Shown: positions 3,562 through 32,000, counted from the stretch's first letter. The stretch is 32,000 nt of DNA from Candidatus Peribacteria bacterium (GCA_023898485.1 CP060225.1:513704-545703); one strand, 5' to 3'. The notes: generated by a model from the letters alone, not told the origin. Program-made: numbers and translations.

Positions 3562-4305
3562 ATGTATATCTCTCTTCTCAATCGCTACTATGGACAGGAT
3601 AATATCGTATCATACACACCACCTCATGATTTGACCTGTAATGCAGGTGATGTGATGATCGTAGGATGAGAATACGGTATCGTCCTGGGAGAGTCTGTGG
3701 CGCGATGATGTGACTACGTACTGGATGATGCATCTTCCCATCAAGCAGAATCACTTCTTCTATCGCCTACCAGTATGATGATGGTGCATTGGATGGTGCA
3801 TGAGTGGTATAGTAGTTATCGCAAAGTTCTGCCACTCTGGCTAGGTAATGACATCACCAATCTTCTCAAAAGAAAACCTCAGACTCCCCCATCACCATCT
3901 CCTGCCTGATCACATCTCGTCAGATCCTGAACCTCACGGATACGAGATGACAAAAAACATCACGGACAACAGTGTATGATTTTCCCTGATTTACGGACTA
4001 TTTATAGCATGATCGACGAAAGAATAAGAACAGATAATGCTGTCGTTATTCTCTCCAGTGCTATGACTGAGAAACAGCGCAATGACGCTCGATGGGCTAT
4101 CAAATATGGCAAAAAGAGGATCATCCTCAGTACGCCTGCTGCGTTTTTTCATGATCGATATAGACTTACCGACATACAGGTGGTTGATTCACATCTTCGG
4201 TATTACAAAAATAGACAAAACCCAAGATACAATGTGAGTGCAGTCGTCGCACAGCGGAAAGCGCACCTTTCGACAACATCACATTCTATGCAAACTGAGC
4301 AATAA
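3562..4305 (+). CDS. Short, degenerate PriA-like protein (primosomal N'-like N-terminus; helicase motifs eroded)
   Basis: The frame from ATG 3562 joins the track ORF 3976-4305 through several TGA codons. The N-terminus MYISLLNRYYGQDNIVSYTPPHDLTCNAGDVMIVGGEYGIVLGES resembles the PriA 3'-DNA-binding domain. GQQCMIFPDLRTIYSM...VILSSAMTEKQRNDARWAIKYGKKRIILSTPAAFF...IQVVDSHLRYYKNRQNPRYNVSAVV is collinear with the PriA motif I-II region. No GxGKT Walker A is present, DEEH is replaced by DSHL, and the ORF stops (TAA 4303-4305) before any helicase C-domain or Zn-finger. Confidence 0.5.
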
Positions 4306-5206
4306 TCTGATAGACGATCAATAAGAATAAGAAGATAGTCAGGCCGACGATAAAGACGGTCTGCAGGATTTTTCCTGCACGTTTTGCTCATTCGCCATCA
4401 CCACCATCGGTAATATAGTTATAACCAGCTACAAAAATAGATCACAAAATACCTATACCTACCGCATATCCCAAAATTCTACTAACCTTGATAATGAGTG
4501 TGCGTGCCTGATCAAAAAATGTCGTATCCATTGCCAACAGATAGATGAAGTCGATCACTTTCATCAACACAAGAGCTATAACAACATTGATAATACCATT
4601 ACGGGCAGATTTGAGTTGCTCTTCGTGGCCCATAGCATGCATCATCCTATAACCAGCTATAACGAGTGCTATGATAGCTGCAAAAAATGACATTGCTTTG
4701 AAAAACGCCAAAAGTTGGAACCATAGATTATTTTGGAAATTGTTGACTAGCGCATTGCTACCTCATGGTGTCGTGAGATTGAGTGCAAAACCTAGTATCC
4801 AGACTGCACCAAAATACAAGAATGCACCATAGAGAAGTCGGATGAAATGTTTTTGTGCTGTTGCGAGTTTGGATTCATCATCTGCTTGTGTAAGAAATTG
4901 AATACCTATCCATATCAAGAAAATGAAAAAGATAGCTACGCCAATAATTCTTACATAACTCCACAAAAATCACCCATTCCCGCTAACGCTTGGATAAAAC
5001 AGTCTCTTAAGATTTTCTGCCAAAGAAGCATCAGGGTTGATCTGTAAGTCATAGACTTTTTCTGTGGTATTCTCACTATTGTCCTTAGGATTGGTTAAGT
5101 GATTAGCAAAATCTGTTTCAAAACTAGGAACTGTCGGCGGAGCTGCCATGCTTATGCCTACCAGGCTACATGCTGCCACTACTATGATTAGAATACTTTT
5201 CTTCAT
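4286..5206 (-). CDS. Secreted membrane protein made of three tandem VirB2/TrbC-like pilin hairpins (306 aa)
   Basis: Track ORFs 4970-5206, 4763-4966 and 4442-4711 share one frame and are joined only by TGA. A further TGA at 4442-4444 extends the frame to TAG 4286-4288. The signal peptide is MKKSILIIVVAACSLVGISMAAPP. Three TM - short charged loop - TM units follow, with loops TQADDESKLATAQKH, HAMGHEEQLKSARNG and TDGGDGEGAKRAGK. Confidence 0.6.
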
Positions 5207-5221
5207 AATGGATGTAGATAA

Positions 5222-5683
5222 TTACACATTAAAAATAAGTGCTACCAAACTTGTGACAAGTTTGATAATCAGATACACAGCCATCAGTATTACTACGCCT
5301 GTGACTATATTGAGTAGTGGTTTACGAATATCTTCAATCGTTTTGCCAAGCACTAGTTGTAGGCCCTGCCAGATGATGAGGATGACAGCTACCGATAATC
5401 CAATATAAATCATTCGATCAAGATATGGAGCAACTTTTTTTCTGATAGAATCAAAGGTATTCGCGAGACGATATGTAAAGGGATATGATCATTCTGTATT
5501 GGTCACGCTATCTAATGCAGTATCTTGTACTGGATCATATGTATTGGCATCTCTTACTACATTATCAAGAATCTCCATCGGAGATGATCCGAATTGTCAC
5601 CATCAGCCACTATTTTGTGCATAGAGGACAGATCACAATCAGATCATCATAAACATAAAACCACTGATTATATATCTTCTCAT
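5222..5683 (-). CDS. VirB2/TrbC-like (T4SS-type) pilin candidate, 153 aa
   Basis: ATG 5681-5683 to TAA 5222-5224 reads through four TGA codons. An N-terminal signal/TM segment (MRRYIISGFMFMMIGLGSVLYAQ) and a soluble spacer precede the C-terminal hairpin MIYIGLSVAVILIIWQGLQLVLGKTIEDIRKPLLNIVTGVVILMAVYLIIKLV. This architecture matches small pilins annotated in CPR and Gram-positive T4SS loci. Confidence 0.55.
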
Positions 5684-5748
5684 GTATCTATGGGTGGAGA
5701 GTAAAATACCTTACCTAGAGTATATGACAATAAAAAAGATAACACAAA

Positions 5749-6378
5749 TTATCCTATTACCTTCCATCACTTGAGTTGACACTGCTTCTGAAAATCATCA
5801 TAATCATCCCACGGAATTATTAGCACAATACCTATCTCATCTCCCATTACCTCCTGCGTAAAATGATATCACCTCTGTTCTCTCCGCTGCATCACTTCAT
5901 GAAAATCCTCAAATCAGACACGAATACGGATCTCTCTCATGATCGGAGTCTGGATTATTTTTGCCGTCTCGAGCACTGCTTGTGCTGTTTGTGTATATGC
6001 TTTGACTAATCATCACACACCTAGTAGTGTTCATCAGAAATAGCGTACTACTGCACATCAGACATTGCGAAGATCAGCTCACTGTAATACCTGCAAAATA
6101 GATCTTCCAGCTGTACCGGATGGCTCACCATCATCCTGACTATAATCACGTTCTGAATGTGTCACCACCTGTCCCATGATATCTCGCTGTATCTGCATAC
6201 CAATGCGATATGCATAACAGACATGGCTTGCCTTAGGATGCAATCACCAGATCTTCTCGATGCTATCTTTTACTTCATTTTCAGATGCTACATGAAAAAT
6301 ATACCCCTCAAACTTTGATCACTTAATCGGAGGAATAGCCATACGATGCGAGTCAATGATGGTATTATACGAAAACAT
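5749..6378 (-). CDS. yigZ: YigZ / IMPACT-family protein (UPF0029)
   Basis: Not in the ORF track because ten TGA codons break it up. With TGA=Gly it reads ...KASHVCYAYRIG...DDGEPSGTAGRSILQVLQGADLRNVGCAVVRYFGGTLLGVGGLVKAY..., matching the family motifs DDGEPxGTAG and RYFGGxxLGxGGLxRAY. Both GG pairs are TGA-TGA (6031-6036 and 6010-6015). The ORF is 210 codons and ends at TAA 5749-5751. Confidence 0.85.
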
Positions 6379-6416
6379 ACCATTATTCTAGAGAAAATAG
6401 GTATGATGTCGAGTGA

Positions 6417-7319
6417 TTATGCGTAGCCGACATTTGCGCTAATGGTCGCGTAATAGTCTTGTGTCTCTTGTGGACGAGTATTGAGTGGTTCTTTAGCATA
6501 TCATGGGCCATTATTGTATGCTATCAATGCTTGCTGCATATTGAACGTATCGCCACTTTTATATCCATATTCTGCCAAATACATAGCAGCAGCTTCTGCT
6601 GCATACACAGGATTTTTTGCAAGTGACTCTGAGTCAGGTGCCGCGACCTTTTTGTATCGATCTTTTGCTGTATCAGGCATAAATTGAAACAATCACTGTG
6701 CGCCCGCACTGCTTCCCAATGGTCTGTCTCCTTCTTTTAAGACTCATTTGCTCTCCTTTTTACACACCTCTACCAAAGTATTGATTGGCAATTTGTGTTT
6801 CCGTTCTAATCGATGTAAGTAAGAGATGTATGCGGTGTTCTTGAGGTATCCATCCTTGGGTAATTGTGACCAAGAGGTATGCTTCAAATCAATAATACTC
6901 TCTTTATCATATTGGGGCTCTTTCAGCTGTATTTTATCGGTTTCATATTTTAGTCATTTGATATCCTCTGCAGTTTTAGTTATATCATCTGATTCGACTG
7001 ATTGAGGATCTTGTAAAAATGATTTGATTATTACTGATTTTAGGACTCTCATGACAGGATTGGTTGGTTCCTCTCTCAGCCACTCAGCAATCGTACCGAC
7101 TGCGACATCTCATACCAGTGGAGATTGTATCATTTTATCATATATCTCTCTTCATCTATCATTCAGTCAGCTAGTGTCACCTTTTTCTAATGCAGATGCA
7201 AGCTGTTCATACTTACTATCTGTTTTTGTTTCCTTGGCTTCTATATTTTGTTTCTGATCATCATCCTGATCGGGCCCCTTGTTGAGGTTATTGTCTGCGA
7301 TATCACTTTTATCTACCAT
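6417..7319 (-). CDS. SLT-domain lytic transglycosylase with a long acidic N-terminal region (VirB1-like role possible)
   Basis: I translated codon by codon from ATG 7317-7319 to TAA 6417-6419 (301 codons) and found no TAA/TAG. The catalytic region is KKESKGVLKEGDRPLGSSAGAQGLFQFMPDTAKDRY...AYNNGPGY, matching ES...AGAxGLMQxMPxTA...YNxG. The Gly of GLFQFMP is TGA 6693-6695. Confidence 0.8.
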
Positions 7320-7441
7320 GGATCGATATAATAATTAAAACTCATTATATTTATTATAATACTTATGCTCCCTAAAGTCAAAAAATCCCCTCTGAAATGG
7401 AGAAGATTCTTTCTAATCTTATACAAACTTACACACTATAT

Positions 7442-8646: not shown

Positions 8647-8737
8647 TCACTGAATTCTATTTCAAAATAGCACACTAGCATAAATCTCTTAATAGGAGTA
8701 TAATCTATAGGATTTATACTCTATGTACTAGGTTATT

Positions 8738-9700
8738 ATGAAACACTTAAGCTATGAGGAATGTGTACATATCGAAGTATTGGTAGGTGAAGGTTATTCT
8801 CATAGACGTATTGGAACAGTCCTATGAAGAAGTAATGGAAGTATTTCTCGTGAAATAAGAGAATATAGTATGAATGGAATCTATATTGCATCACTTGCAT
8901 ACCTCAAAAGAACCATAAAGAGACAGTTATGCAATAGTCTTATGCGCTGTAGAATAGACGAGTGAAGTGATCTAGCACAGTATACAATAGACAAGATGAA
9001 GCTCTATTGGTCACCAGAACAAATAGCAGGAAGGTGGAAGAAAGAGACATGAGAAACTATTTCAAAGGACACTATCTATAGGTACATTAAGATACATCAT
9101 CCAAAGTTAGTACCTCAATATTTCAGAAGAAAATGAAGAAAATATAAGTATAACAAAGAACCCTGTGATTATATCTATAACCGTATTAGTATTCATGAGA
9201 GGCCAGACATAGTGAAGAATAAAGAAAGAATAGGCGATCGAGAATGAGATACAGTTATAGGAAAATGAAGAACATGAGGTTTTGTGACTCTCAATGAAAG
9301 GAAGAGTGGTTATGTGCTAGCTGGGGTCATTAAGAAAAAGAAAGCGCAAGAGGTGTTATATGTGATGGAAAAGTTATTCAATGAGGTATCTGAAGGTATA
9401 AGAAAAACCCTCACCTTAGACAACGGCAGAGAGTTTTCTGAGCATTATATGTTGAAGCCATTGTGCGGGTTAGACACATACTTTGCAGACCCATGATCAC
9501 CCTGACAAAGATGAGCAAATGAGAATACAAATGGCTTACTGAGACAATTCTATCCAAAACGTATGAGTCTTGCAAATATTCAGCAAGAACACCTTGAATA
9601 CTATGTAAGTCTCCTTAATAATAGACCAAGAAAAAGGTTAGGTTACACTACTCCGATAGAGGTTCTTGCTGAATATAATAAGTGTGTGGATTTGAATTAG
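8738..9700 (+). CDS. IS30-family DDE transposase, 320 aa
   Basis: ATG 8738 to TAG 9698-9700 (321 codons) is in frame with track ORF 9284-9496. It has an N-terminal HTH (SYEECVHIEVLVGEGYSHRRIG), then GDREGDTVIG, TLTLDNGREFSEH and [28 protein letters not shown]...LNNRPRKRLGYTTPIEV. These match the IS30 catalytic core (WEGD...DNGxEF...PWQRGxNENxNGLLRQ...RPRKxLG). Ten TGA codons are read through. Confidence 0.85.
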
Positions 9701-10227
9701 AATCTAGTTTCTTGCAGATAGTTTTTTATGAGAGTAAATTCCTGGGCACGAGGAAATCATGGAAATTCCATATTATTTCAAGCAAAAATATCTTCTACTT
9801 GTTCTAGAGTAAATGTCTGCATATCTTCTACTTCACCATCTTTGAATTCAAATGGCCCATCATATCATTGCAATACATAGAGATAGTTGTGTCATCTATA
9901 CTCATTCTGACCATGACAAGTATACACTTGTATAAAATCTATTTTATCTCCCGCATCCATAATCCCAGCCTCTTCCTCTGCTTCTCTTATCATAGCTACT
10001 GTAGGCTCTTCTCATAAAGCAATATGACCACTTACTGTAGCATCTCGACAATCAGGCTTAATCCATTTATCCTTAGGTCTCTTTTGTAATCGTAGTTTAT
10101 TTTCAGTATTGAATACATAGAGAATTACTGCCCTCACATACTGTCATTGCTTGTATGCCTCAGACTTCATCATGTCTCCTATCCTCATATTATTTTCATC
10201 ATAGATATTGATACGTTCGTCAGCCAT
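9697..10227 (-). CDS. Nudix hydrolase
   Basis: The Nudix box GHIALGEEPTVAMIREAEEEAGI fits Gx5Ex7REUxEExGU. The Gly of LGEEP is TGA 10012-10014. The ORF is 177 codons in frame from ATG 10225-10227 to TAA 9697-9699. Its last roughly 10 codons lie inside the presumed right end of the IS30 element and overlap the transposase stop by 4 nt. Confidence 0.8.
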
Positions 10228-13200: not shown

Positions 13201-13423
13201 CACGTTTGACGAGTGCAAATGCTTCGGGCAAGATGTCGTCAAGATGTTCGCCTGACGCGACTCTGGATTTGAGTTCCGCGGTTTTGGTCTGGACTGCTTC
13301 TTGATCATAGTCAGCGTAGTCATGCTCGTAGATCTCATTGATCTGGCGGATAATGGGGTCGATTTTTTTGAGTTCTCTTTCGTTGTAATTTCCTGATATT
13401 TTATCAGCTAATCGGTTGATCAT
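10277..13423 (-). CDS. secA: Preprotein translocase ATPase SecA (1,048 aa)
   Basis: Track ORFs 12599-13423, 11516-12175 and 10400-11473 are in one frame. The 12176-12598 gap translates as ...[17 protein letters not shown]...[60 protein letters not shown] without TAA/TAG. GLHQ and KEGV use TGA 12287-12289 and 12257-12259. The true stop is TAA 10277-10279. The C-terminal tail lacks the Zn-binding CxCxSGxKxKxCH motif. Confidence 0.95.
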
Positions 13424-13505
13424 GTGTGAAATTTGCAGAGTGAAAAAATGAAAAAATAGTGTCGCCTAGACTACTCTTTTGGAATAATGATTGCAAGAGC
13501 AAGGC

Positions 13506-13540: not shown

Positions 13541-13834
13541 ATGGCTCTATTATCTCCTTGGTATAGTCCTTATCTGCCTACTATGTAGAAGATTATGAGA
13601 TACCTCCTAATAATTAGTACATTATATCACATATAGAACATCATGCATTGTGTGATACAAGGTGCAGTGTGTTTTCCCTGCATTAGGATTTTCATGTGAT
13701 ACGCACAAAACTATAACTAGATATACTTTCCTATATTTGTGTATCGCAATTATATGATATAATGGTAAAAAATAGAATATCTCACCATGCATCATTATAC
13801 TCGTGGATAGTTTTATGTGTTTTGCACACTATAC

Positions 13835-16600
13835 ATGTACAATCCTAACGATATTACACTCAATCCTAACAGTACTACTACACCACCACATCAGCCACAG
13901 CCACAAAATGAGCATGATACAACAGCCGTACCAACGGTTCACGCACCAGTGTCTGATGAAAGTTTTGATGTAGATAGAGCCTTGGCGGCTATCGAGGAAT
14001 CTACGCCCAGTCCTGATCCATTGATCAAAGTCAACCCAAGAAATGCAGACGCTGTGATCGAAAATCACCAAGAGGACGTGCGCAATGGTCTTGTAAGTGA
14101 CGATACTCCCGTTCCACCGATGGTGCAACCATCAGTACCTCATGCTCCAGTCGCTCAACCACTTCCCACACAACAAATACCTTCCACTCTTCCCACTACT
14201 CCGACTATACCTACCACATCCAATACTCCTGACTCTCCTGCCAAACAAGCCGTCCATCAAGCATTTGGTGTTGCAGGCGCAGTCACTGCCGCTACCGCAG
14301 CTACATCATCCGCTACTCCGACTGTACCAACTATCCCTGTTGTCCCAGCTACTCCTACTACAACCACTCCACGTGTTATCAATACCAAAAAAAGCGGAAA
14401 ACGTATTAGTTTTATTGGTTTTACTATAGGCTGTGGAATTTTTCTTCTTCTCCTCTTAGGTGGAGGTGCTCTTGTTCTCTGGAGCATGTTCCAAGATCCC
14501 AATCAAGCATGGACTATCATAGATCGTGCATCAGGGGAACTGCTTATTAAACTCTTCACTGGTACTATATTTGGTATCTTGACGATCTTTGGAGTCTTCT
14601 TCCTTTTTGTTAATCTCTTCAGACTCGCATCCAAAAAAAACACCAGAAAAATTTCTTATATTGGTGGTATGTTGGTAGGTTTTCTCATGTTAGGTGCGTG
14701 ACTAGGTGCTGGCATCCCTGCTATCAGCTATCTCAACACACTCAGCACTAATAATGTGAGTACAGGCCTTATGGTCGAAGCATACGTACTCTTAGGAAAC
14801 AATGAATCACCACGTCATATCAATGATGATACTCCTCCACTCAGAATTGCTCCTGCCAAAATCCTCTTTGAACTCAATACTACCGTATATAAAGCCACCG
14901 TAGGACAACTTGGACTGCAGACTACACCACGTATGACATTGGATTGTGGAAATGGTGAGACATTCTCCTATAGCAATGAAAGTAATACATTCTGACCATG
15001 TTTCTATACAGAAAAGGGTGACTACCCCGTCACTATCACATTCAACTATACTGATAGATCTACCGGACAGATGACGGAACAAGTCTTCGATATGGGATCA
15101 TTTCCTATAGATGGACAAATTGCTCTTGCTAATATCAACGGTACTTCTCAGACAAAGCTCTTACTCAACAATGATAAGACCGAACTCATTGCAGGTATTG
15201 CACCTGCTAAAATCAGATTCGATGCACAAGATCTTATCAGTGATCTCCAATTACCTACCAACGATATCACATGGGACATAGATGGTGATGGTATATTTGA
15301 GCGCGCAGAGGATGTAGTATTCTCAGAAAGTTTTATCCTCTCCAAACTTCATACCATCAACTATAAAATCGGAACATCACCATATACCTATACCTTCGAT
15401 CTCAGAGTACAACAGTCTGATGTCCCTATCTGTATGATCGATGTCGAGGACACCACCAGCAAATCATATGACTTCGTCATTTCATTCGTCGAAACCAACG
15501 CCGATATTAGTCAGTACGGTTTTGAAATCATCAATACGACAACAAATCAAATCATCGACAGACGCCAAAGCACGATCGGATCACTTTCCTACGATTTCAC
15601 TCGCGAATGATCGTATGCTGTCAAAGCGTATTTTATCACCGATGATGGTAGTAGGGGTGATTGTGAGAGTGATGATTTTCGTGTCGGAGCGGTACCATAT
15701 GTCGTCGATTATACGACTACTGTACAGTGACCAGGTGAATCTAGTGCATCCACGTTGGCACAGAGCGACGTACTTACTATCAACGATGACGAGACGTGGA
15801 CTATCATGAGCATACCAACCAAACTAGCTATCACCATAGCAGATATCAGACCAAGAAGTGGCACAGTCACTCCCATAGTAGAACTCGATGGTGAACCCAT
15901 CCTCTCTACTAATAATGAAAATTTTTCACTCACGATTAGTGCAGTAGGAGATCACACACTCACTATCGGTGTACGTGACACACTTACCAATGAAACCAGC
16001 ATCATAGAAAGTCATACTATCCACGTAGAACTCCCTAGTATAGAAGGACAGCTGCAGGTAAGTCCTAACAGTGTTGGTGACGAACCGTTTACCGTCACGC
16101 TCGACGCATCGACCGTCACACTCAATGATCCTGATGATGAGGTAGTCTACTTCTCATGGGATTTTGGCGATGGAGAAGTCAAGAAAAATCAAAGCCAAGG
16201 AAGAATCCAACACACCTATTACTTTAATGAAGAAACACAAGAAGGAATCTACCACCCTACTTGTACCATCACCACTCGCAAAGGTGAAACCATGACACTC
16301 TCACTCGCAGATCCTATTACCATAAAAAGAGCACTCAGACACGCTGAGATCATCTTTGACTCGCATCCTGCACAGCTTGCCAATATCGGTGAGAATGTCG
16401 ATATGTCCCTCATAGTAGACGGCATACCAAGCACAGTAATCTGGGATTTTGGCGATGGACAGAACTTCCAATGTACAGGCAGAACCTGTAATGAAGTTAC
16501 TCACAACTTCCTAGATACAGGCACCTATGCAGTCTCTGTGACGATCTCCTATGGTGACCACCCCGACGTCACTGCCAAAAAGAATATTGTCATTCAGTAA
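13835..16600 (+). CDS. Large membrane-anchored surface protein with PKD/Ig-like repeats (about 921 aa)
   Basis: Track ORFs 13817-14701, 14756-14995, 15071-15610 and 15755-16600 share one frame. I read the gaps and they contain only TGA. A Pro/Thr-rich N-terminal region is followed by three TM segments (for example ISFIGFTIGCGIFLLLLLGGGALVLW). Repeated beta-rich modules then carry PKD hallmarks WDIDGDG, WDFGDGEVK and WDFGDGQNF. The stop is TAA 16598-16600. The start is taken at ATG 13835, with an alternative GTG at 13817. Confidence 0.8.
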
Positions 16601-19868: not shown

Positions 19869-21257
19869 CTATAGATTCATTACACCTAAGGCAAGATGCT
19901 CCAGAAAATAGGTTCTCTTCTTGATATAATCTTCACCGTATGGACCATAACCATACAGTAGCTCGTATACTACATTGGCAAACGATTCTGCATAATCTTC
20001 GTATGGAGACGCACGAGCATAATCAGTCACAAACTGCCAATCCTGACACAGACGATCATAGGAGTCTGTTGTTTTTCACATATCTCGGCAGATGGTATTA
20101 AAAGCGGTTTCACTTTCATCTCTCCGATGTTCATAATAGTGACCAATTTCATGTAAAATAGTCATATCTAAATTGATGGAGAAATTCATCAGATGCTCAT
20201 AACTAGCACACACTGGTATTTCGAAAATAAATCCCTGGAATACAATCGTACTTCACTCATCTACCGTGATATCATGCATACTAAGTGACGATTCTATCAC
20301 AGAGTGTGCACTGTCATAGTAGTACGTAGATACCTCCGGATCTAGTGTTATAGATTCTCATGCCACTGCCCCATCTTCTGTGATGAAACTAAACTGATAA
20401 TAAGCATCTCTCGCATCACACGATGCTGGTATCACAAAATCAATATGATGTAGAATACGATCTACATCACTCTTATCTATGATAGTGTGGTGTTGCAAAA
20501 GCGTTAAATTCTTAATAATTTTGTTTTTTGCTATCGCAATGAAAAGATCTGCATACTCAGCATCTACTCATGAGAGACTCTGCAAAAAGAAATCATAACT
20601 ATACACGCCGATCTGAGGCACTTCCTGTAAAAGATATGCAGCATTATTAATATATGAAATATCTCTCTGTTTCACGTAATTCAATAAATTAAACTTGGCT
20701 TCCTGTGCACGACTTACGTCATTGTCTGATGGAGCTTTTGGTATTATGAGCGTATCGTTGATATACTGTATATGGAACTCTTGCAATATCTTTTTGTAGT
20801 GGAGGTTAGCATACTTTTGTATACAGTATTCTTCATCAGAAAAGTTTTTTAATAGATGTCTTGTAGCGATGAATTTGGTAAATCTCTCGTATGAAAGTAA
20901 TAACTTTACATCTTCTGATAGTTCGTTTTCCTTTTCTATATTGATAGTATAGTCTATCATCTCTTGATAGCGCTCTTCGCCACGACGTTTAGTATCAGTG
21001 GGACAGTGGTCCAATAAAAAACGAATCAAATCATTGTATCTAATATTGTCTTCTATAGTTTTATCAGGATGTATCTGATCTTCATAATCTTCTACTAGCT
21101 GATATATCGATGATGGAGCGCTCGCATGAAGCGAAGTATGTGTTGTGATGGAGGTGTTCTTATGGTGTATCCACCACCAAACCACGATCATAATACTAAA
21201 AATTATCAGACTCAATCACACACAGACTCGACGACGATGTCAATGACAGGAAATCAT
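19869..21257 (-). CDS. Membrane-anchored putative zinc metallopeptidase (HEXXH)
   Basis: Track ORF 20568-21215 continues through TGA 20568-20570. I read the extension codon by codon to TAG 19869-19871. It contains ILHEIGHYYEH and a downstream TDYARASPYEDYAESFANV (HEXXH ... EDxAE third-ligand pattern). The upstream ATG 21255-21257 gives MISCHGHRRRVCVGLSLIIFSIMIVVWWWI, a positive patch followed by a TM segment. Confidence 0.7.
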
Positions 21258-21392
21258 ATCATTGTGTCAGATAAAATCTCTTGATATGAAGTATATTACC
21301 TATCATCTCTTCTGTCAAATTATCATATACGAAAAATTTCCCACAAAGGGAAATATCCGAATGAAAGTAATATATGATGCGTAAGACATATC

Positions 21393-23832: not shown

Positions 23833-24246
23833 CTATATGCAATGTGATATAATAGAAGGCATCTCAACAACCCACACACAGTAATTGATCTGGCTATTTT
23901 TTGTTAGCTCATGGAAGATGATATCATCTAGTCATCTCACTCCATAGACATACTCTTTGGAGAAGGTCTGTCCACCATTACTGTCGTAGGTTTGATGCTC
24001 TTGAGCAATATTCTGTCCATCATAGACATAGGTGATGAGTCTGGATTCATTACTTCATTGGTAGACTCTCTTACTCGTTCTACATCATAGTGGATCGTAG
24101 CTATATTCGATCTTGTAGGGGTCTTGGTTTCCTTCGTGGTTATTTTTGAGATTCGCTTCGATGAGTCTATTCTGGTAGTCGTAGGTAAATGTTCGCTTGT
24201 CGTTTTCGATGAGGCTGTTGCTCGTTTCACACAATAGAGAGTCATA
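23833..24246 (-). pseudogene. Truncated rhs core remnant (no start codon; homologous to part of the main rhs)
   Basis: The frame opens right after the TAA of the upstream gene. It reads ...NDKRTFTYDYQNRLIEANLKNNHEGNQDPYKIEYSYDPLGCRTSKRVYQGSNESRLITYVYDGQNIAQEHQTYDSNGGQTFSKEYVYGVRGLDDIIFHELTK, then diverges and stops at TAG 23833-23835. Nucleotides 23905-24213 align closely with 27329-27658 of the main gene. Confidence 0.7.
23905..24213. repeat. Rhs-core repeat B, downstream copy (pairs with 27329-27658)
   Basis: Long stretches are identical by eye, for example CTCTTACTCGTTCTAC.TCATAGTGGATC.TAGCTATATTCGATCTTGTAGGGGTCTTG. There is one indel: the main copy carries extra sequence encoding DNPAEDGAGHP. 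Confidence 0.75.
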
Positions 24247-24633
24247 TTAATAGAGCTCTACCTTATACCAATTAGATCACATATCTTTAATAATAAACTT
24301 GTATTCTTCGCTATTAATGTCGTTAATACTATACATATATCATGCTCATTGTAATTTATTGTACCATCATGATTTGAGAAATACAATATCCCCATTATTC
24401 ATTCTTATGATATTGTGTATATTATTTTTTTTCATAAAAGAAATACAATCAGCACATATATCACTCTTTTTATCAATTCATGTAATTGATGGATTTCAAT
24501 TCATATATACAACCATTGCTTCATAATCTCATATACTGTTTTTGAATCCATCAATAAGTTTTATATACTTAAAGAAAACAATAGATATAATACATAAGAC
24601 TGCAGCTATAATGATGATTTTTTTTATTCTCAT
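24247..24633 (-). CDS. Small N-terminally membrane-anchored protein, 128 aa; candidate immunity protein for the orphan toxin
   Basis: ATG 24631-24633 to TAA 24247-24249 contains seven TGA codons. Translation is MRIKKIIIIAAVLCIISIVFFKYIKLIDGFKNSIGDYEAMVVYMNGNPSITGIDKKSDICADCISF.... It lies 33 nt downstream of the type-44-like toxin ORF, on the same strand. Confidence 0.5.
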
Positions 24634-24666: not shown

Positions 24667-25582
24667 TTACTGTAAATGATCGCGTAGCTTCTCTTCCGTT
24701 ACAATAAGTCCATATTTTTGATACATGGCATATCACAATTCTACTGTATTTCGATCACTAACTTCATCATTAAATTTATCAGAATATCTGTTACTACACT
24801 CATCCATAGTTAACACCGCACATCTTAATGTCATTTTTGCTGTGAACACATTAGCACTTCAATTAATTAACTCATTCATTGGCATACCTCCAGCTGCCCC
24901 GACATACCCGTAAAGCAGATTACCAAACCAATCATACGAATACTCATTATCTGCTATTAATACAGAAAATGCTTGTAGTGTTGCTGGAGAATATTCATAT
25001 CTCTTATAGTCTCGATCTCATCGTGGGCGAACTTTATTAAAGAAGTATAGATATTTATCAATAGATAGTTTATCTAATTTTATTTGAAGAGTAGAAATTT
25101 TGAATCTTTATTAATTCATTCTCAAAAAAAGATCAATCTCATCGATTTAATTCATTTTGTAAATTTACAATACTTCTTTTTATTGCAGATTCTTGAAGGG
25201 CATAATTCTGCATTAGAGCTCAATTATTTAACAGCTTATTGAGTGCATCTATTGTCATATCTGGAAGTACTTCTTTACTACTCAACCCCCATGGATCCAC
25301 ATAATTCACACTATTGTTCCTCACATAGCTATACGGATTCGGCCCATCGATATACAGCAGTGGATCACTGGAGATGAATCTTCCGAGTCTCGGAGAGTAA
25401 TATCTCGCTCTATAATAGTACAGATCAAGTTCTGCTTCGTATTCTCTAGCGATGTAGAGTCTGTAGTTTTCTAGTCATGGTTTGGATTCTTGCATGGATG
25501 TGTTTCCATTCTGCTGATTACCACTTGGATTACTAGTATTTGTGTTACTAGCGCATTGTTGAAATTTTGATATATAGTACAT
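24667..25582 (-). pseudogene. Orphan rhs C-terminal module: core tail, DPWGL, linker, then a type-44-like toxin domain in the +1 frame
   Basis: Frame 1 runs from ATG 25580-25582 to TAA 25070-25072. It reads MYYISKFQQCASNTNTSNPSGNQQNGNTSMQESKPGLENYRLYIAREYEAELDLYYYRARYYSPRLGRFISSDPLLYIDGPNPYSYVRNNSVNYVDPWGLSSKEV.... The +1 frame is open from 25107 to TAA 24667-24669. It reads ...VRPRGDRDYKRYEY...YDWFGNLLYGYVGAAGGMPMNELINGSANV...NDEVSDRNTVELGYAMYQKYG and has no start of its own. Confidence 0.65.
25286..25533. repeat. Rhs-core repeat A, orphan copy (pairs with 26921-27168)
   Basis: About 250 bp encoding NPSGNQQNGNTSMQESKPGLENYRLY.AREYEAELDLYYYRARYYSPRLGRFISSDPLLYIDGPNPYSYVRNNSVNY. The nucleotide sequences differ at only scattered positions by eye. 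Confidence 0.85.
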
Positions 25583-25589
25583 ACACTAT

Positions 25590-26261
25590 CTATGCACTAA
25601 AACAATCTTTCATATCAATTATACCTATATAAGATATATTATTAACGATATAGAATATAAAAACCGTATCCTGTATGTAGTATATTGTAGAGACATGATC
25701 TCTAATGAATCATGCATATTCCATATCCTCAGGAGAAGCTAAGGTGCTATCGTCATTAATATTGTTATGTTTATAAAAATCTATCTTTCATTGGTTGATA
25801 TCGATTATATCCTGTACAAACTGATAGTTATTGTCATAGTCATAAGATGCAATTACATCTGGTTTATAATCATCACTGTCTCCCAACCAACATATATCTT
25901 GCCATTGCAAATCATTATTAGTTTCTAATTGGTCCACAATATCTAGATTAAAATCAAATCATGATCAGTAGTATACTGCACCAAAAAACCCGTTATAATA
26001 ATATGTCTCATATGCATCCTCAAATCATGGGAAAAATGCGATATATCAATCAGCTCCAGGATTGTAAAAGATCCCTAAGCTATCCTTCACAAAATGATCC
26101 ATCATAGCAAAATCATTACTATTAAGTGCAGATAGTAGTCAAATAATATCATCATGCTGACTATCTATGTCTATATCTCTTCAACTATTGTCTAGAATAC
26201 TGCATCAAGATAATAACATACAACACAACACCCCAAAGTATCTTAGAAATATTACTTTCAT
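25590..26261 (-). CDS. Lipoprotein, 223 aa; candidate immunity protein for the amidase-tipped Rhs toxin
   Basis: ATG 26259-26261 lies 24 nt downstream of the rhs stop, and the ORF ends at TAG 25590-25592. MKVIFLRYFGVLCCMLLSGCSILDNSG has a lipobox LSGC whose Gly is TGA 26205-26207. The mature part is acidic and aromatic-rich (FFPGFEDAYETYYYNGFFGAVYYGSGFDFNLD) and matches no family I recognise. The ORF is invisible in the standard code. Confidence 0.6.
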
Positions 26262-26284: not shown

Positions 26285-26920
26285 CTACTTTTGATTCTCT
26301 CTTACGTATTGTATTACATCATCTGCAAACGATGTTGCTTCTCAAATATTTTTACAACTTACCCATGGGTGTGCGTATATATCATCAGCACTTAAACCAT
26401 ATGTATTTGCAACCGATAATGTTAATTCTTTTAAAGACTGTAGTTGATCACTAGTTAGTGGCTCACCAGTCATTCATACATTCTCTATTCAGATGGTGTT
26501 TTGGTTATTATTAGCATACTGATTTACTTCATCTGTTTGATGCCAGTCATCTACTCATCAGTTATAAACATATTCCCTCAAGGTATTTACACAGTATTCA
26601 TTTGCTCCATTGTGTCGAGCTATCTGTGTATCAGGATCAAGTGTCCCATATATTTGACCATCAGTATCTATAATATAGTGAGCACTTGCAGTACCTTTGG
26701 GTCGCGTATAATCTAATGTAGATTCTAAGGTTGTTGCATTGGTTTGGTGTAGAATAATAGCTTGTATTCATTCTCATTGACGATCTCGATGTCAATAATT
26801 ATATTTTTCAGCATATGACCAATCAATATCAATTCATCACAAATTATCAATTCGTTCATTAATACTATTTGTAAATGTGTTACTCTTAATGTTATCATAT
26901 AGTATAGCACTACTCTCTAA
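26285..26920 (-). other. Rhs C-terminal toxin tip: Amidase_2 (N-acetylmuramoyl-L-alanine amidase / PGRP)-like domain
   Basis: After DAWGL the protein reads ...GIQAIILHQTNATTLESTLDYTRPKGTASAHYIIDTDGQIYGTLDPDTQIARHNGANEY...NTIGIENVGMTGEPLTSDQLQSLKELTLSVANTYGLSADDIYAHPWVSCKNIGE. This follows the Amidase_2 order: IxIHxT (His ligand), AHYxIDxDGxIxQ, AxHxG, NxIGIE, TxxQxxxLxxL, then IxxH....C (His/Cys ligands). Confidence 0.6.
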
Positions 26921-29900
26921 CCCCCAAGCATCCATATAATTCACACTATTATTCCTCACGTAGCTATATGGATTCGGTCCATCTATATATAGTAGTGGAT
27001 CACTGGAGATGAATCTTCCCAGTCTCGGAGAGTAGTATCTCGCCCTATAATAGTAAAGATCAAGTTCTGCTTCATATTCTCTAGCGGTGTAGAGTCTGTA
27101 GTTTTCTAGTCATGGTTTGGATTCTTGCATGGATGTGTTTCCATTCTGCTGATTACCACTTGGATTACCATTCGTATTTCATGAGTTTTTACTTCATCAG
27201 AATATTATATTACCTCGGGTATCGTATCTGTAGGATTCGACTATCTTACCTTCTTGGTTAGAGAGAGCTATGATAGATCACTGATGATTTTGATAATAGT
27301 AGTACTGATTCACCTGATCATTTCTGGTGAGTTCATGGAAGACGATATCGTCTAGTCCTCTGGCTCAGTAGACATACTCTTTGGTGAAGGTTTGTCCATC
27401 ATTGCTCTCATAGGTTCGATGTTCTTGAGCAATGTTCTGTCCATCATAGACATAGGTGATGAGTCTACTTTCATTGCTTCATTGGTAGACTCTCTTACTC
27501 GTTCTACGTCATAGTGGATCATAGCTATATTCGATCTTGTAGGGGTCTTGATTTCATGGATGGCCTGCCCCGTCTTCAGCGGGGTTATCTTTCAGATTCG
27601 CTTTGATGAGTCTATTCTGATAGTCATAGGTAAATGTTCGCTTGTCGTTTTCGATAAGGTTGCCATTCTGATCGTATGCAAAACTAGTGGCTATTGCTCC
27701 TGTTGCACCTTCTGTCCCTATTGCTACTTCTTCATATTGGTTTCTGTTATTGATGTTGTAAGTGTTCTGATACTCATCTGTCACTGCACCGACACCATTA
27801 TAGTCTGGACTGATGGTGAGCCAGTCATCTTGGACTCCACTACTACTTCATCCACTTTGTCAATTTGATCCATTTCATCCTGTATCATCTCCCGTTCCTC
27901 GTCCATAGTGATTTCCATTCCCTCCATTACCTTGGTTTTGTTGGTTTCCATTGCCATTATTGTTTCCATTTGATCCACTTGGTCCATTTCAGCTATTTCA
28001 TCCACTTTGTCCATTATTCCCATTATCTGTATTGGGTACGACTGATTGCGTCGTATTTCACTGGGTATTGCTATTAGCTTTCTGATGGAGTCGATCGAGG
28101 ATAGTGATACCTGCGATGTCATTGTATTCGGTGACTCTGTTGCCTAGTCCGTCGTAGGTATAGGTCTGTACTCGATGGTTGAGGTCGGTAGATCATTGTT
28201 CGCCATTGGATCAATTGATGAGATCACCAATATTGTAGGCAGTGGTCGTGATCTGATAGATATCATCATAGTAGTACTGATCGTGACCATCAGTGAGGAT
28301 GTTATTCATCAGATCATAGGTGTAGGTGTAGCCTATCTCGGTGGTAGGTCAGCCAGTGAAGCTATCGTGACTGAGGGAGGTAGGTCTTAGGAGATCGTCA
28401 TAGATTCGTGAAGTGGTAGTATCATTGGCTCTGGTGAGAGAGGTGAGGGTGGCGCTGTCATAGAGGTAGTCGATGATACTCTCTCCTTCTCGCTGGATAT
28501 CTGTCATGCGTCCGAGGATGTCCCACTGGTTCGTAATCGTCTTGCCTGATGGGTAGATGGTGTCTTGGAGATCAGCGGTATCAGCGTAGTAGCTATGGGA
28601 GATGGTCTGAGTAGGGAGTCACTGCTCGGTGAGTCGTAAGTTAGACTGTGATTCAGAGGTGAGCCTATCCAGACTATCATACGAGAAAGTAAGATCATGT
28701 CCGAGGTCATCGGTGATCGATGTGACCCTCCCGAGTTCGTCATAGGTGTAGTGCTCCTGAGTGACTCATCCGACTCATGGACCCAGATCAATATCCTTCT
28801 GTGTGATGCGATGCATGTCATCATAAGTATATGCTACGGTCGACCCATTGGGATCGGTAGATGAGATGATATTGCTGTCTGCATCGTAGGTGTAGGTAGT
28901 GATTGCACCATCGGGGAGTGCTTGCTGTATGAGTCTATCATAGTCGTCGTAAGTCCATGTGGTGATGTTGCCATTATCATCGGTGAGAGAGATGAGATTA
29001 CTGTGGCGATCATAGGTTTTGGTAGTGACGATAGCTTGTGATCCATCATGTTGCGTTACTTGTGTGACATTGCCCCAGTAGTCATATTCGTACTCGGTAG
29101 TATTACCCTCTGCGTCCGTCATCTGGGTGATCTGACCCAGTCCATTGTAGACGTAGGAGAATGTCTGTCCCATGTGATTGGTCGTCTGGATGAGACGATG
29201 ATCGTCATCATAGGTATTGGCTATTCGGAGCATCTTACCTTCTGCTGTGGTGATGGTTTGTTTGGTGATGAGGTTGTCATCATCATATTCATAGGTCAGT
29301 ATTTTGCCGACTGCGTCGGTGATGGTCTCTGGTCTGGCAAATGCATCATAGGTCATCGTAGTCACCGCTCCTCTCTGATCGGTCATGGCGATGATCTTCC
29401 CATGTTGATCATAGGTATAGGACATGGAGAGAGTTTCGCTGGTGTTATCTACATTGACTTTGTCTACCTGTGTCAGCTGTCATCGTGCATCATAGGTGTA
29501 GTTTCGTTGCTGTAATAGTATGTAGTTAGTGGTTTGTGGTGTGTAGTTGCTTACTATCATCCTTGTTATCATGTTGCGATTATCATCGTACTCGAAGAAG
29601 GTGGTGATATCCTCAGCAGTGGTGATAGTGGCGATCATATCATCGAGTGTTCGAGTCATGGTGGTCTCATGTCCTTCTGGATCAGTGATGGAGATCAGTC
29701 TTCCTTTGGTGTCATAGTCATAGCTGTACTTGATCAACTGTCCATCTACTGTTGCAGATTTACTGGTGAGTCTCTGGAGAGAGTCATAGGTATAGTTTCG
29801 CGCGAGTCATTCAGGAAGGATGATGGATGAGAGGTTGTCATTGGGATCATACTCCATGATAGTGGTAGCTATAGTGTCTGCATCTTGGTCAGTAGAGATG

Positions 29901-32000
29901 GATGTGAGATTGTCGAGGATGTCGTAATCGAACGTAGTGTCGACATGAGCACCATCCACATCCTGGATCATACTGGTGAGGTTATGATTGTCATCATAGC
30001 TGTATGATAAGGTGATGGCTTCTGGAGTAGTGAGCCCGGTGAGTCTATCCCACTCATCATGAGTGAGTGTGGTGGTGTGACCCTCTCCATCAGTGATGGT
30101 ACGAGGATTACCAAAATCATCATACGAGATAGTCTGTGTGATCTGACTACCATCAGTACCAATCTGGGTAATAGTGAGAGGGAGATCGTATTCGTTATAG
30201 GTGTAAGTTATCTGCTGACCATAAGGGAGAGTGATGGTATCTGGTTTGTCAGAGTCAGTGTAGGAGATAGTGGTGGTACGAGCAGGGAGAGAGCTGTCTG
30301 CTGGCTGGATGGTGTACGAAGTGAGATTGTTGTGATCATCGTAGGTGTAGCTATGGTGAATATGATGGCTGTCTACTTTTTCTGTCAGGAGATTATTGCT
30401 ATCATAAGTGAAGGTTTCGGTGAGAGATTCATCACCATCGGAGATAGTGGAAGAGGTGATATTGCCTTGGTCGTCGTAAGTGTAAGACTGTGCAGAATCA
30501 TCAGGATAGGTAATCTGCGATACCTGATGTCATATACCATCATATTCATAATGATACATGATGCCTGACTGATCAGTCAGAGACAATAAACGGTAATATG
30601 CATCATACACATGAGTTGCTGTCTGACCGCGTCTATCAGTGATATCTACCTGTAGATTACCATCAGCAAGATCGGTATATGTATAAGAAAGTATCTGATC
30701 ACCATAGGCCTGTTGGATAACACGGTCATGAGCATCATATGTGTTGTCCACATAGATATTGTCTTTGTTATCATCAATAGTTGCTAGCTGATGCGAAAGA
30801 AGATGGTTGACTACACGCTCACCTGTCACGCTATCATAACGTACATCACTATTATAAGTGAGATTGATGGTCTGATTTTGATTTTCATGATTGACCACAA
30901 ATGATGCAATATCTCCCAATACGCCATCACTGTCCTGATCACCGTAATAGGTAATATCTACTGAGCGACCATTGGCATGAGCAATGTGTGTGAGTCTCTT
31001 CTCAGGATATGATGGGTTGAGCTCTTCGTATGAGAAAATGATATTGCGTCCATGAGGATCAGTGATAGTGGTGAGATATCCCTCATCATCGTAGCTAAGA
31101 GCATAATCAGCATTATGTATGGTATAGCGAACCATTCTCCATGGCACTATATCTTCGCCCTGAGATGCAAATACTTGATAGGCGTTGGCACCTACAATAT
31201 GTAAGATGTATTCATCTCCTGATTGGGAAATCTCCATATCAGACGCATTAGTCCATTTGTCTCCCTCTTGGACGAATTTATACACATGGAGGTATCCATC
31301 ATAATAGGTGATAGTAGACCCATCGATAGTGAGATATTGATTCCAATTATGATCTCGATTTCGTCACATGATACCGTTGTATGATGCTTGATTATCATAG
31401 GTGACTACCAATTGAAAATCTTCACCCTCCGTCGGCTCATCCATGAGTGTATTGGACCAGACCATTGCACCTCTTGCAAGATCGACAGGATCACCACTAT
31501 TCTGTGTCACCTCTGTTTGAGCTTGTATGCCTCCATAGTATTCTACTATACTATTGGTATAATCAACCTGCGGATTATAGATATAAGAAGTCAGATTGAT
31601 ATTATTACTCATCTGTTCATGCTGTATCACAGGTTCTTCTTCGGTGGGAAGATTGATGCTACCATCAGGATTAGTAGTAGGATCCCATGCAGCAGGACGA
31701 GGACAATAATTATTATCTACAATAATTTTTAACTTATAGTTTCTCACCTTCACCACACAACCAGGATCAATATATTGTGATGCTGTCATTTCATTATGCG
31801 TACATTGTCCATCCCATCGTGCTATTCCTCATGGACATTGAGAAACATCAGATGTGGGACATACAAATCATGCATAATCACCATCTGTCGGCTGATACCA
31901 GTCTGCCAAATCTTCTGCAGTAGCATAGGGATCATCAAGCACTGACGCATAGACAGGACATATTTCTAGATAGGTAGGTCACTCTTCATAATATGCTCAT
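26285..32000 (-). CDS. Rhs/YD-repeat polymorphic toxin, 5'-partial (>1,900 aa in window), with C-terminal Amidase_2/PGRP-like domain
   Basis: Track ORFs 31364-31789, 30530-31285, 29480-29737, 28775-29425 and 27554-27784 are all in the frame of stop TAG 26285-26287. I read the gaps 31286-31363, 29738-30529, 29426-29479, 27785-28774 and 26921-27553 codon by codon and they contain TGA but no TAA/TAG. The Rhs shell entry motif GDPVDLARGAMVWSNTLMD is near 31440-31495. Dozens of YD repeats follow (YTYDxxGR/N...). The core ends ...LYYYRARYYSPRLGRFISSDPLLYIDGPNPYSYVRNNSVNYMDAWGL. The frame is still open at 32000. Confidence 0.9.
26921..27168. repeat. Rhs-core repeat A, main-gene copy (pairs with 25286-25533)
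   Basis: See the 25286-25533 feature. The copies diverge exactly at the DPWGL/DAWGL boundary on one side and at NPSGN on the other. Confidence 0.85.
27329..27658. repeat. Rhs-core repeat B, main-gene copy (pairs with 23905-24213)
   Basis: See the 23905-24213 feature. Confidence 0.75.
27836..28069 (-). repeat. Gly/Asn/Ser/Gln low-complexity insert inside the rhs coding frame
   Basis: The rhs frame reads NTQGNTTQSVVPNTDNGNNGQSGGNSGNGPSGSNGNNNGNGNQQNQGNGGNGNHYGRGTGDDTGGNGSNGQSGGSSSGVQDDW. Six TGA codons sit among GGA/GGT/GGC/GGG glycine codons. Confidence 0.8.

Follow-up and report, generated by a model that had tools for sequence, protein, structure and literature searches.

An Rhs polymorphic toxin with a predicted cell-wall amidase tip in a bacterium that reads TGA as glycine

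The experimental example of a Sec-dependent RHS toxin is WapA of Bacillus subtilis, whose tip is a tRNase that must reach the cytoplasm. The DNA analyzed here, a window of 32,000 nucleotides from Candidatus Peribacteria bacterium (GCA_023898485.1 CP060225.1:513704-545703), carries on its minus strand an Rhs gene of the same general plan, whose cargo, unlike that of WapA, is predicted to act on the cell wall. This Rhs protein also differs from WapA in its genetic code (TGA encodes glycine, Gly), in its genome of about 1 Mb, and in an N-terminal domain of no known family. The locus resembles the Sec-dependent RHS toxins as a class in having a lineage-specific N-terminal domain, a YD shell, a core and a variable tip, presumably preceded by a signal sequence, and also in its downstream candidate immunity gene, orphan cassettes and DPxGL-type core end (PMC3482391). 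In that class, assigned to a 'T2SS/Sec-dependent system' (T2SS, type II secretion system), a lineage-specific domain often follows the signal peptide (PMC3482391).

Peptidoglycan-degrading tips were already predicted in 2012, namely NlpC/P60, an L,D-peptidase with RHS repeats and a FlgJ-like glycohydrolase (PMC3482391). Their logic is that of the window locus: an RHS carrier bears a wall-degrading domain at its C-terminus, and an immunity gene, in the window a candidate one, is linked to it. However, Amidase_2/PGRP domains, present in the window tip, are absent there ('PGRP' has 0 occurrences in the text; PMC3482391). An Amidase_2-fold amidase that serves as an interbacterial toxin with cognate immunity is known from Pseudomonas aeruginosa, where AmpDh3 (PA0807) and its immunity protein PA0808 are listed as an amidase toxin/immunity pair of the H2 type VI secretion system (T6SS) (PMC10281587). 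AmpDh3 is nevertheless distant from the tip in sequence (family profile E 2.8e-5), is a T6SS cargo rather than an Rhs tip, and has an AmpD-type C-terminal motif. The effectors Tse5, RhsA and Rhs1/Tre23, whose structures are solved, share with the window protein a DUF6531 plug, a YD shell and two aspartates 23 residues apart, and their self-cleaved, enclosed tip is predicted for the window protein as well, but they rely on PAAR/VgrG and the T6SS, and their tips are pore-formers, nucleases or ADP-ribosyltransferases (PMC10684867). In the window Rhs, by comparison, no PAAR was seen and the motif reads DPLL...DAWG. An RHS/YD toxin with an adjoining immunity gene has also been described in a Saccharibacteria genome (PMC6031116).

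No report joining RHS and Amidase_2 in one protein was found in the literature, and nothing specific was found there on Rhs proteins in Gracilibacteria or Absconditabacteria. Similarly, no Rhs protein with an Amidase_2 tip occurs among the best 120 of 1360 family matches, all of which are short, and a hidden Markov model (HMM) of the family detected no second Rhs with an amidase tip in six-frame translations (TGA as Gly) of 93 Rhs-core loci, a small sample drawn from genomes and metagenomes. The preliminary description of this locus, made from the sequence alone, overstated its novelty, as both wall-degrading Rhs tips (PMC3482391) and the Amidase_2 T6SS toxin AmpDh3 (PMC10281587) had been described. 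What is new is the cargo, an Amidase_2/PGRP amidase, on a well-known type of Rhs weapon, and the logic of this combination is unsurprising to specialists in polymorphic toxins. A wall-acting cargo need only reach the wall, which would make for simpler delivery in organisms without a T6SS or a type VII secretion system (T7SS). The locus offers a concrete, testable toxin/immunity candidate for envelope attack in ultra-small bacteria that read TGA as Gly, a poorly understood lineage whose dealings with other cells are likewise little understood.

The Rhs gene occupies a single minus-strand frame of 1904 sense codons (window 26285-31999) with 0 internal TAA or TAG codons and 39 in-frame TGA codons. 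It ends in a TAA/TAG-type stop at 26285-26287 and is still open at the window end (31999). The continuous frame of more than 1,900 codons in the preliminary description is thus borne out, and the overlooked in-frame TAA or TAG that the description named as fatal to its reading occurs nowhere inside it. The gene and its parts, with residues numbered from the first codon in the window, are as follows.

26285..31999, minus strand: Rhs polymorphic toxin gene, 1904 codons and stop; 5' end just outside the window (about 22 codons, by homology to locus L003)
31694..31999, minus strand: lineage-specific N-terminal domain with 6 Cys (aa 1-102), by homology to the start of the L003 Rhs placed right behind the signal sequence
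31292..31495, minus strand: DUF6531 N-terminal plug (aa 169-236, starting GDPVDLARG); PF20148, 34.3 bits, cut-off 24.1
27122..31291, minus strand: YD/RHS-repeat shell (aa ~237-1626); 14 PF05593 stretches
27830..28075, minus strand: low-complexity insert of 82 residues rich in Gly, Asn and Ser (aa 1309-1390, with GGNGNHYGRG), seen in the sequence
26918..27121, minus strand: Rhs-associated core and C-terminal plug with aspartyl-protease motif; TIGR03696
26288..26917, minus strand: variable toxin tip, 210 aa, predicted Amidase_2-family N-acetylmuramoyl-L-alanine amidase domain; PF01510
26366-26770, minus strand: Amidase_2 Pfam match within the tip (aa 1744-1878)
Key codons of the tip, minus strand, in tip numbering: H57 at 26747-49; E145 at 26483-85; H183 at 26369-71; K189 at 26351-53; E193 at 26339-41

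The Rhs assignment rests on several profiles. Over the whole protein, translated with table 25, RHS_repeat (PF05593) reaches 289.6 bits in 14 stretches, and TIGR03696 (NCBIfam) reaches 66.1 bits against a cut-off of 32.5, with the match ending exactly at DAWGL; both searches had been proposed in the preliminary description. Together with the DUF6531 plug, these matches bear out its claim of an Rhs/YD-repeat toxin, and on this evidence the window protein is an Rhs/YD polymorphic toxin. The motifs quoted at the time were all recovered, including GDPVDLARG (aa 169-177), YYYRARYY (aa 1649-1656) and MDAWGL (aa 1689-1694) in the carrier and IILHQT, AHYIIDTDGQIY, ARHNG, NTIGIENVG and IYAHPWVSC in the tip. 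The N-terminal domain (aa 1-102) has no match in Pfam. A Gly/Asn-rich insert of about 80 residues with the conserved GGNGNHYGRG also interrupts the shell of the L003 Rhs (L003 ~13300-13500), and this insert may form a surface loop.

The core points to a self-processing toxin. Its two aspartates, D1667 (SSDPLL) and D1690 (MDAWGL), are spaced by 23 residues. The catalytic D1141 and D1164 of Tse5 are likewise 23 residues apart, and Tse5 is cleaved between L1168 and I1169, four residues past the second aspartate (PMC10684867). Since this pair of aspartates is conserved in the window protein, cleavage is predicted after L1694, and the tip would be kept inside the shell.

The tip comprises the 210 residues that follow DAWGL, one fewer than the 211 first counted. 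PF01510 matches it with 52.6 bits in the context of the whole protein and with 58.5 bits when the tip is searched alone, against a cut-off of 26, and the match to the tip spans positions 4-120 of the 131 in the profile. The Amidase_2 assignment in the preliminary description is accordingly upheld, and the tip is a bona fide Amidase_2-family domain. Single-sequence searches were less sensitive: the best match by sequence in the PDB is AmpDh2 (E 0.018), a word-based search for homologues of the tip by itself returned nothing, and neither did tblastn of the tip against 50,697 phage records. When a TGA-free stretch of 69 tip residues was searched against 1.84 billion representative proteins, it matched an identical fragment together with P0016 and P0010, two divergent Amidase_2 proteins with the same unusual C-terminal motif; over 183 residues, P0016 and the tip share 33% identity (E 6e-18). 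The top multi-stretch matches of the same search, P0002 and P0003, were fn3 repeat proteins and were discarded as spurious.

A profile built from the tip, P0016 and P0010 returned 1360 proteins. The best 120 of these are all PF01510 proteins of 144-261 amino acids from Burkholderia, Erwinia, Pantoea, Pseudomonas, Serratia, Cupriavidus, Comamonas and metagenomes, and, save for the truncated 144-residue P0010, they share 27-34% identity with the tip over 85-92% of its length. Every invariant residue of a 22-sequence alignment is retained in the tip, comprising H57-Q-T, H80, G87, Y90, T92, H102, G104, C109 and G143-I-E145 as well as V147-G148, Q158, H183-P184, K189 and E193-A194. An independent HMM of the family (119 members, with the tip left out) scores the tip at 74.7 bits, and the C-terminal signature HPxVSxKxxxEA appears in the tip as AHPWVSCKNIGEA and in the family as RHPEVSYKNxTEA. 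Furthermore, the first methionine of the family aligns four residues past the predicted Rhs cleavage site, so that the tip is co-linear, from that point to the family's C-terminus, with an entire stand-alone amidase. The heptapeptide YDNIKSN, located where the tip begins (window 26879-26899, minus strand, aa 1701-1707), recurs just before the plug in L003 (~9980-10000), either by chance or as a trace of recombination.

The relatives in Proteobacteria occur in a recurrent genomic setting. In Burkholderia ubonensis, Cupriavidus campinensis and Pseudomonas cerasi, an orphan gene for an Hcp protein of 160 residues is immediately followed by the amidase gene. A gene of 144 residues overlaps the end of the amidase gene in Pseudomonas and Cupriavidus; in Burkholderia, Hcp and amidase are followed by an uncalled open reading frame (ORF) homologous to this partner; and in Erwinia, an amidase gene and an overlapping gene of 143 residues are found without Hcp. 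The Erwinia partner and the uncalled Burkholderia ORF are visibly homologous, and both start with hydrophobic, signal-like sequences. These islets, with Hcp of 160 aa (except in Erwinia), amidase of 204-207 aa and partner of about 144 aa, are located as follows.

L007: 7504-9100
L102: 5501-6615
L104: 5497-7052
L004-L006: 8001-9049

Since the order Hcp, amidase, partner is the standard layout of T6SS cargo, the Hcp-linked family is read here as a wall-directed T6SS effector with a periplasmic immunity protein. No literature was found that characterizes the Hcp-linked amidases of about 200 residues or calls them a T6SS effector/immunity pair, and the family, with more than 1000 members, is annotated merely as 'peptidoglycan recognition protein family'. 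The window tip and this family are alike in their invariant residues, C-terminal signature and co-linearity, and in having a partner gene directly after. In contrast to the Rhs-borne tip, the family members are free-standing, lack a signal peptide and neighbor Hcp, and their partners are homologous secreted proteins of about 144 aa that are unrelated to the window lipoprotein. The tip is thereby tied to a large and apparently uncharacterized family of Hcp-linked amidases and partners in Burkholderia, Cupriavidus, Pseudomonas and Erwinia.

The fold was judged on a proxy, an AlphaFold model of the family member P0171 computed with 118 further sequences rather than of the tip itself. This model has an Amidase_2/PGRP fold with a predicted local distance difference test (pLDDT) score of 96.6 and a predicted template modeling (pTM) score of 0.92, and its Foldseek matches, AmpDh2, XlyA, PGRP-SD, AmpD, AmiD, AmpDh3 and PlyL, all have a probability of 1.00. 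By sequence, the family profile matches AmpDh2 (2.7e-9) and AmpDh3 (2.8e-5) as well as AmpD, XlyA, T7 lysozyme and AmiD. Among the zinc ligands first predicted for the tip, the two histidines stand: throughout the 22 aligned sequences, H57 (ILHQT) and H183 (AHP) are invariant, and both line up with histidines of AmpDh2. The third candidate, the cysteine of AHPWVSC (Cys188, 'VSC'), was rejected, being Y, R or H in the relatives. In this enzyme class, the third ligand is Cys in T7 lysozyme and PGRP and Asp in AmpD. E193 is an invariant acid at H183+10, a spacing that is presumably that of His154 and Asp164 in AmpD, and it is probably the third zinc ligand of the tip in place of Cys188.

Downstream of the Rhs stop lies a set of shorter genes and remnants on the same strand.

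25590..26261, minus strand: candidate immunity gene for a 223-aa lipoprotein (MKVIFLRYFGVLCCMLLS-G-C; lipobox LSGC with TGA-encoded Gly), 23 nucleotides past the Rhs stop
24667..25585, minus strand: orphan Rhs C-terminal cassette with core end, DPWGL and Ntox44-type tip, frameshifted
24247..24633, minus strand: candidate orphan immunity gene, 128 aa, N-terminal membrane anchor, assigned by its position after the orphan tip
23833..24246, minus strand: second, older Rhs fragment (~aa 1450-1560 of the main gene)

The lipoprotein gene, mentioned in the preliminary description, is present at this position, and its product starts with MKVIFLRYFGVLCCMLLSGC. From its position, export signal and composition shared with the tip, the lipoprotein is a candidate immunity protein. 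Behind it, the core end of the orphan cassette (25276-25533, 258 bp) is 93% identical in DNA to 26911-27168 and scores 71.5 bits with TIGR03696, and its tip scores 45.9 bits with Ntox44 (PF15607). The older fragment is 84% identical in DNA to the main gene (23896-24214 against 27320-27659). Both repeats stop at the core/tip junction. On this repeat structure, the downstream region is a typical Rhs orphan array of displaced tips, which was missed in the earlier reading and is strong evidence for a working polymorphic-toxin locus. The orphan Ntox44 tip is frameshifted near 25090-25110, in an A-rich run; once repaired, it is 30% identical to the functional L003 tip (E 3e-13). The main Rhs gene of L003 likewise has two frame breaks (~9990 and ~12800), and these breaks and that in the orphan tip could be assembly errors or decay. 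The 128-aa orphan immunity candidate has no family match and shows no similarity to the lipoprotein downstream of the L003 Rhs.

The tip and the lipoprotein also stand apart from the Rhs shell and the housekeeping genes in guanine-cytosine (GC) fraction and in the share of Gly codons that are TGA.

Housekeeping genes: GC 0.44-0.51, TGA 0-14% of Gly codons
Rhs shell: GC 0.43, TGA 21% of Gly codons
Amidase tip: GC 0.33, TGA 62% of Gly codons
Lipoprotein: GC 0.30, TGA 56% of Gly codons

This composition supports cassette exchange for the tip and lipoprotein. Given the low GC and the TGA share of 56-62%, the cassette is also a long-standing resident of genomes that read TGA as Gly and no recent import from Proteobacteria. 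Across the window, recoding is strongly uneven and follows local GC and probable mobile DNA; TGA makes up 0-10% of Gly codons in SecA, ABC-F, SecF and other GC-richer housekeeping genes and 38-78% in low-GC genes, among them the tip, the two immunity candidates and the IS30 transposase.

The closest Rhs relative, P0021 of locus L003, is 36% identical to the window protein, has more than 80 in-frame TGA codons read as Gly, and bears an Ntox44-type tip. The first residues in the window (G-AYYEEGPTYLEICPV...) align with L003 from residue 23 onward (46% identity over 101 residues, E 1e-32), and in L003 a hydrophobic signal sequence, MLKKILGIIVSACFLLCGIIFAG, directly precedes the aligned region. 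Two further Rhs proteins of about 1900 aa, from two other organisms that read TGA as Gly (one of the genes on a 540-kb contig), have classical signal peptides of the AxA type (for example ...LTNNAFA|DD).

L022, 1609-8994: Rhs gene with 29 in-frame TGA codons
L027, 1540-7284: Rhs gene with 94 in-frame TGA codons

Because of the signal sequence in L003 and the signal peptides in L022 and L027, the window Rhs is expected to be Sec-exported, with a signal sequence of about 22 residues beyond the window. The Rhs proteins of L022 and L027 have a common N-terminal domain unlike that of the window protein and carry non-amidase tips, and an orphan cassette is present in L022. Sec-type Rhs loci seem to be common in lineages that read TGA as Gly. 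A Pfam scan of the Rhs and its neighbors within the window gave no match to PAAR, VgrG, Hcp, LXG or SpvB/TcB, in line with the earlier statement that partner genes of the T6SS, T7SS or Tc-toxin kind are missing from the window. The delivery route, which the same statement called unknown, is no longer wholly so, as the signal sequences of L003, L022 and L027 point to Sec.

Taken together, the locus is probably that of a Sec-exported Rhs toxin with a wall-amidase tip and a lipoprotein immunity protein, a weapon against neighboring cells in a bacterium that reads TGA as Gly. Its product would be a single chain of about 1925 residues composed of a putative signal sequence, the 6-Cys domain, the DUF6531 plug, the YD shell and an aspartyl-autoprotease core. 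After the cut behind L1694, the 210-residue (24-kDa) tip would stay enclosed in the shell as a predicted zinc N-acetylmuramoyl-L-alanine amidase of the Amidase_2/PGRP fold, co-linear with the amidases of the Hcp islets. Released at the surface of a neighbor, the tip would cut the bond between N-acetylmuramic acid and L-alanine (MurNAc-L-Ala), strip the stem peptides from the glycan strands and weaken or lyse the cell, with no need for cytoplasmic entry. Seated on the outside of the producer's membrane, the lipoprotein would block the amidase and thereby shield kin. The repeat structure and the shift in composition show that the cassette of tip and lipoprotein was recombined onto the conserved core and displaced an older Ntox44 tip, now a frameshifted orphan.

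Several points weigh against this interpretation. The core motifs are degenerate, with DPLL and DAWG where the consensus is DPxG. The tip lacks the conserved helical insert of the family (HEHKK, P.RYP) and its second invariant Cys, having instead D129, N132, A135 and a shorter segment in the region of the insert. The third zinc ligand is assigned from the alignment only, and its spacing to the conserved Lys is unlike that in AmpD and T7 lysozyme. The lipoprotein has no match in Pfam, NCBIfam or PADLOC and no detectable homologue, and it does not resemble the proteobacterial partner protein (BLASTP E 0.34). Additionally, the signal sequence itself would lie outside the window, and the enzyme would have to leave its cage at the target surface without an injection machine.

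The target may instead be a host. In this scenario, which is unlikely though the more novel one, an attached bacterium opens the sacculus of a larger bacterial host at the contact site and takes up its contents, with the lipoprotein shielding its own wall. The use of TGA for Gly and a genome of about 1 Mb would be in keeping with such a lifestyle, as both match lineages in which the members studied so far live as episymbionts or predators. The wall-lytic cargo, for which cytoplasmic entry would not be needed, and the failure to find T6SS or T7SS genes in the window also agree with it, and predation by Absconditabacteria is cited in a preprint (bioRxiv 10.1101/2023.11.21.568195). However, the locus looks like that of a classical kin-competition Rhs, with polymorphic tips, an immunity-like gene and orphan cassettes; the related amidases lie in islets typical of T6SS effectors used by bacterium against bacterium; and nothing in the data points to a host or a lifestyle. 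An episymbiotic or predatory bacterium that reads TGA as Gly and lacks an injection machine could, on a rather doubtful reading, use a Sec-exported Rhs cage as a contact weapon to open the host wall. If true, this would be a first molecular entry point to the way in which such ultra-small bacteria break into their hosts, one hidden in the public record by translation with the wrong code.

It is improbable that the tip is a catalytically dead, PGRP-like module that binds peptidoglycan and anchors or targets the Rhs to walls, with any toxicity residing elsewhere. Non-catalytic PGRPs do exist, typically without the third zinc ligand, and the cysteine named earlier as a ligand is indeed not conserved in the relatives. 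Peptidoglycan-binding C-terminal domains are also found in some toxins (PMC3482391). Against a dead module, the tip retains both histidines, the Glu of the GIE motif, the Lys and the Glu found at H+10, all of them invariant across the 22 aligned sequences. The domain also occupies precisely the place of the polymorphic toxin, immediately past the cleavage motif, with an immunity-like gene behind it.

The domain could also act in cis, as a housekeeping autolysin that opens the producer's own wall for passage of the Rhs cage or for cell separation. It is common for secretion machines to come with wall hydrolases of their own, and the window encodes an SLT lytic transglycosylase beside genes for type IV secretion system (T4SS) pilin-like proteins. 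Such a role is nevertheless highly improbable for a domain that lies behind an autoproteolytic site, in an exchangeable cassette that brings along a partner gene and differs in composition, and that is kin to the amidases of Hcp-linked islets. Moreover, the similar Rhs proteins exported in L003, L022 and L027 bear tips other than amidases.

All of the above presupposes the reading of TGA as Gly. The probability of 1904 codons free of TAA and TAG, computed from base composition, is ~7e-39, and TGA is not avoided in the same frame, with 39 observed against ~35 expected by chance. In SecA of the window, two TGA codons fall in RRFNQ[TGA]LHQAIEAKE[TGA]V, both at Gly positions of Escherichia coli SecA. 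Gly is likewise required at TGA by motifs of the IS30 transposase and by the lipobox LLS[TGA]C of the lipoprotein, and the TGA-encoded G27, G143 and G148 of the tip are invariant Gly in the 22-sequence amidase alignment. As TGA sits on conserved Gly in SecA, IS30, the lipobox and the amidase family, these genes bear out the code 25 proposed in the preliminary description and indicate that TGA is Gly in the source organism, neither Trp nor stop. Peribacteria (Peregrinibacteriota) are not known to use this code. A 69-aa piece of the tip (window 26339-26770) was deposited at NCBI as the separate protein USN57630.1, 'MAG: N-acetylmuramoyl-L-alanine amidase [Candidatus Peribacteria bacterium]', on a contig of 1,001,997 bp. 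Evidently the standard code was applied to the public record, and under that code the Rhs gene falls into about 40 pieces.

That record (USN57630.1, thus table 11) is what speaks for taking the long frame as an artefact of a standard-code genome, either a decayed pseudogene or some 40 small genes, an idea that can practically be dismissed in view of 39 TGA but 0 TAA or TAG in 1904 codons, the TGA codons on conserved Gly of SecA, IS30, the lipobox and the amidase family, and HMM matches that continue straight across TGA codons. Standard-code annotation of such genomes thus hides a 1900-residue toxin as about 40 fragments.

Elsewhere in the window, an intact-looking transposase of the IS30 family (8732-9700, plus strand) has 10 in-frame TGA codons for Gly and represents a mobile element adapted to the code. 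About 20 kb from the Rhs gene, the region 4286-7334 (minus strand) encodes a membrane protein resembling T4SS pilins (PF18895, 41 bits), another small membrane protein of similar style and the SLT lytic transglycosylase (53 bits), a set that resembles a VirB2/VirB1-like cluster. A membrane-anchored protein with a HEIGH zinc-peptidase motif (19869-21299, minus strand; Peptidase_Mx 22.7 bits, below cut-off) and a surface protein of 929 aa that carries PKD domains (13811-16600, plus strand) are further candidate surface or attack proteins.

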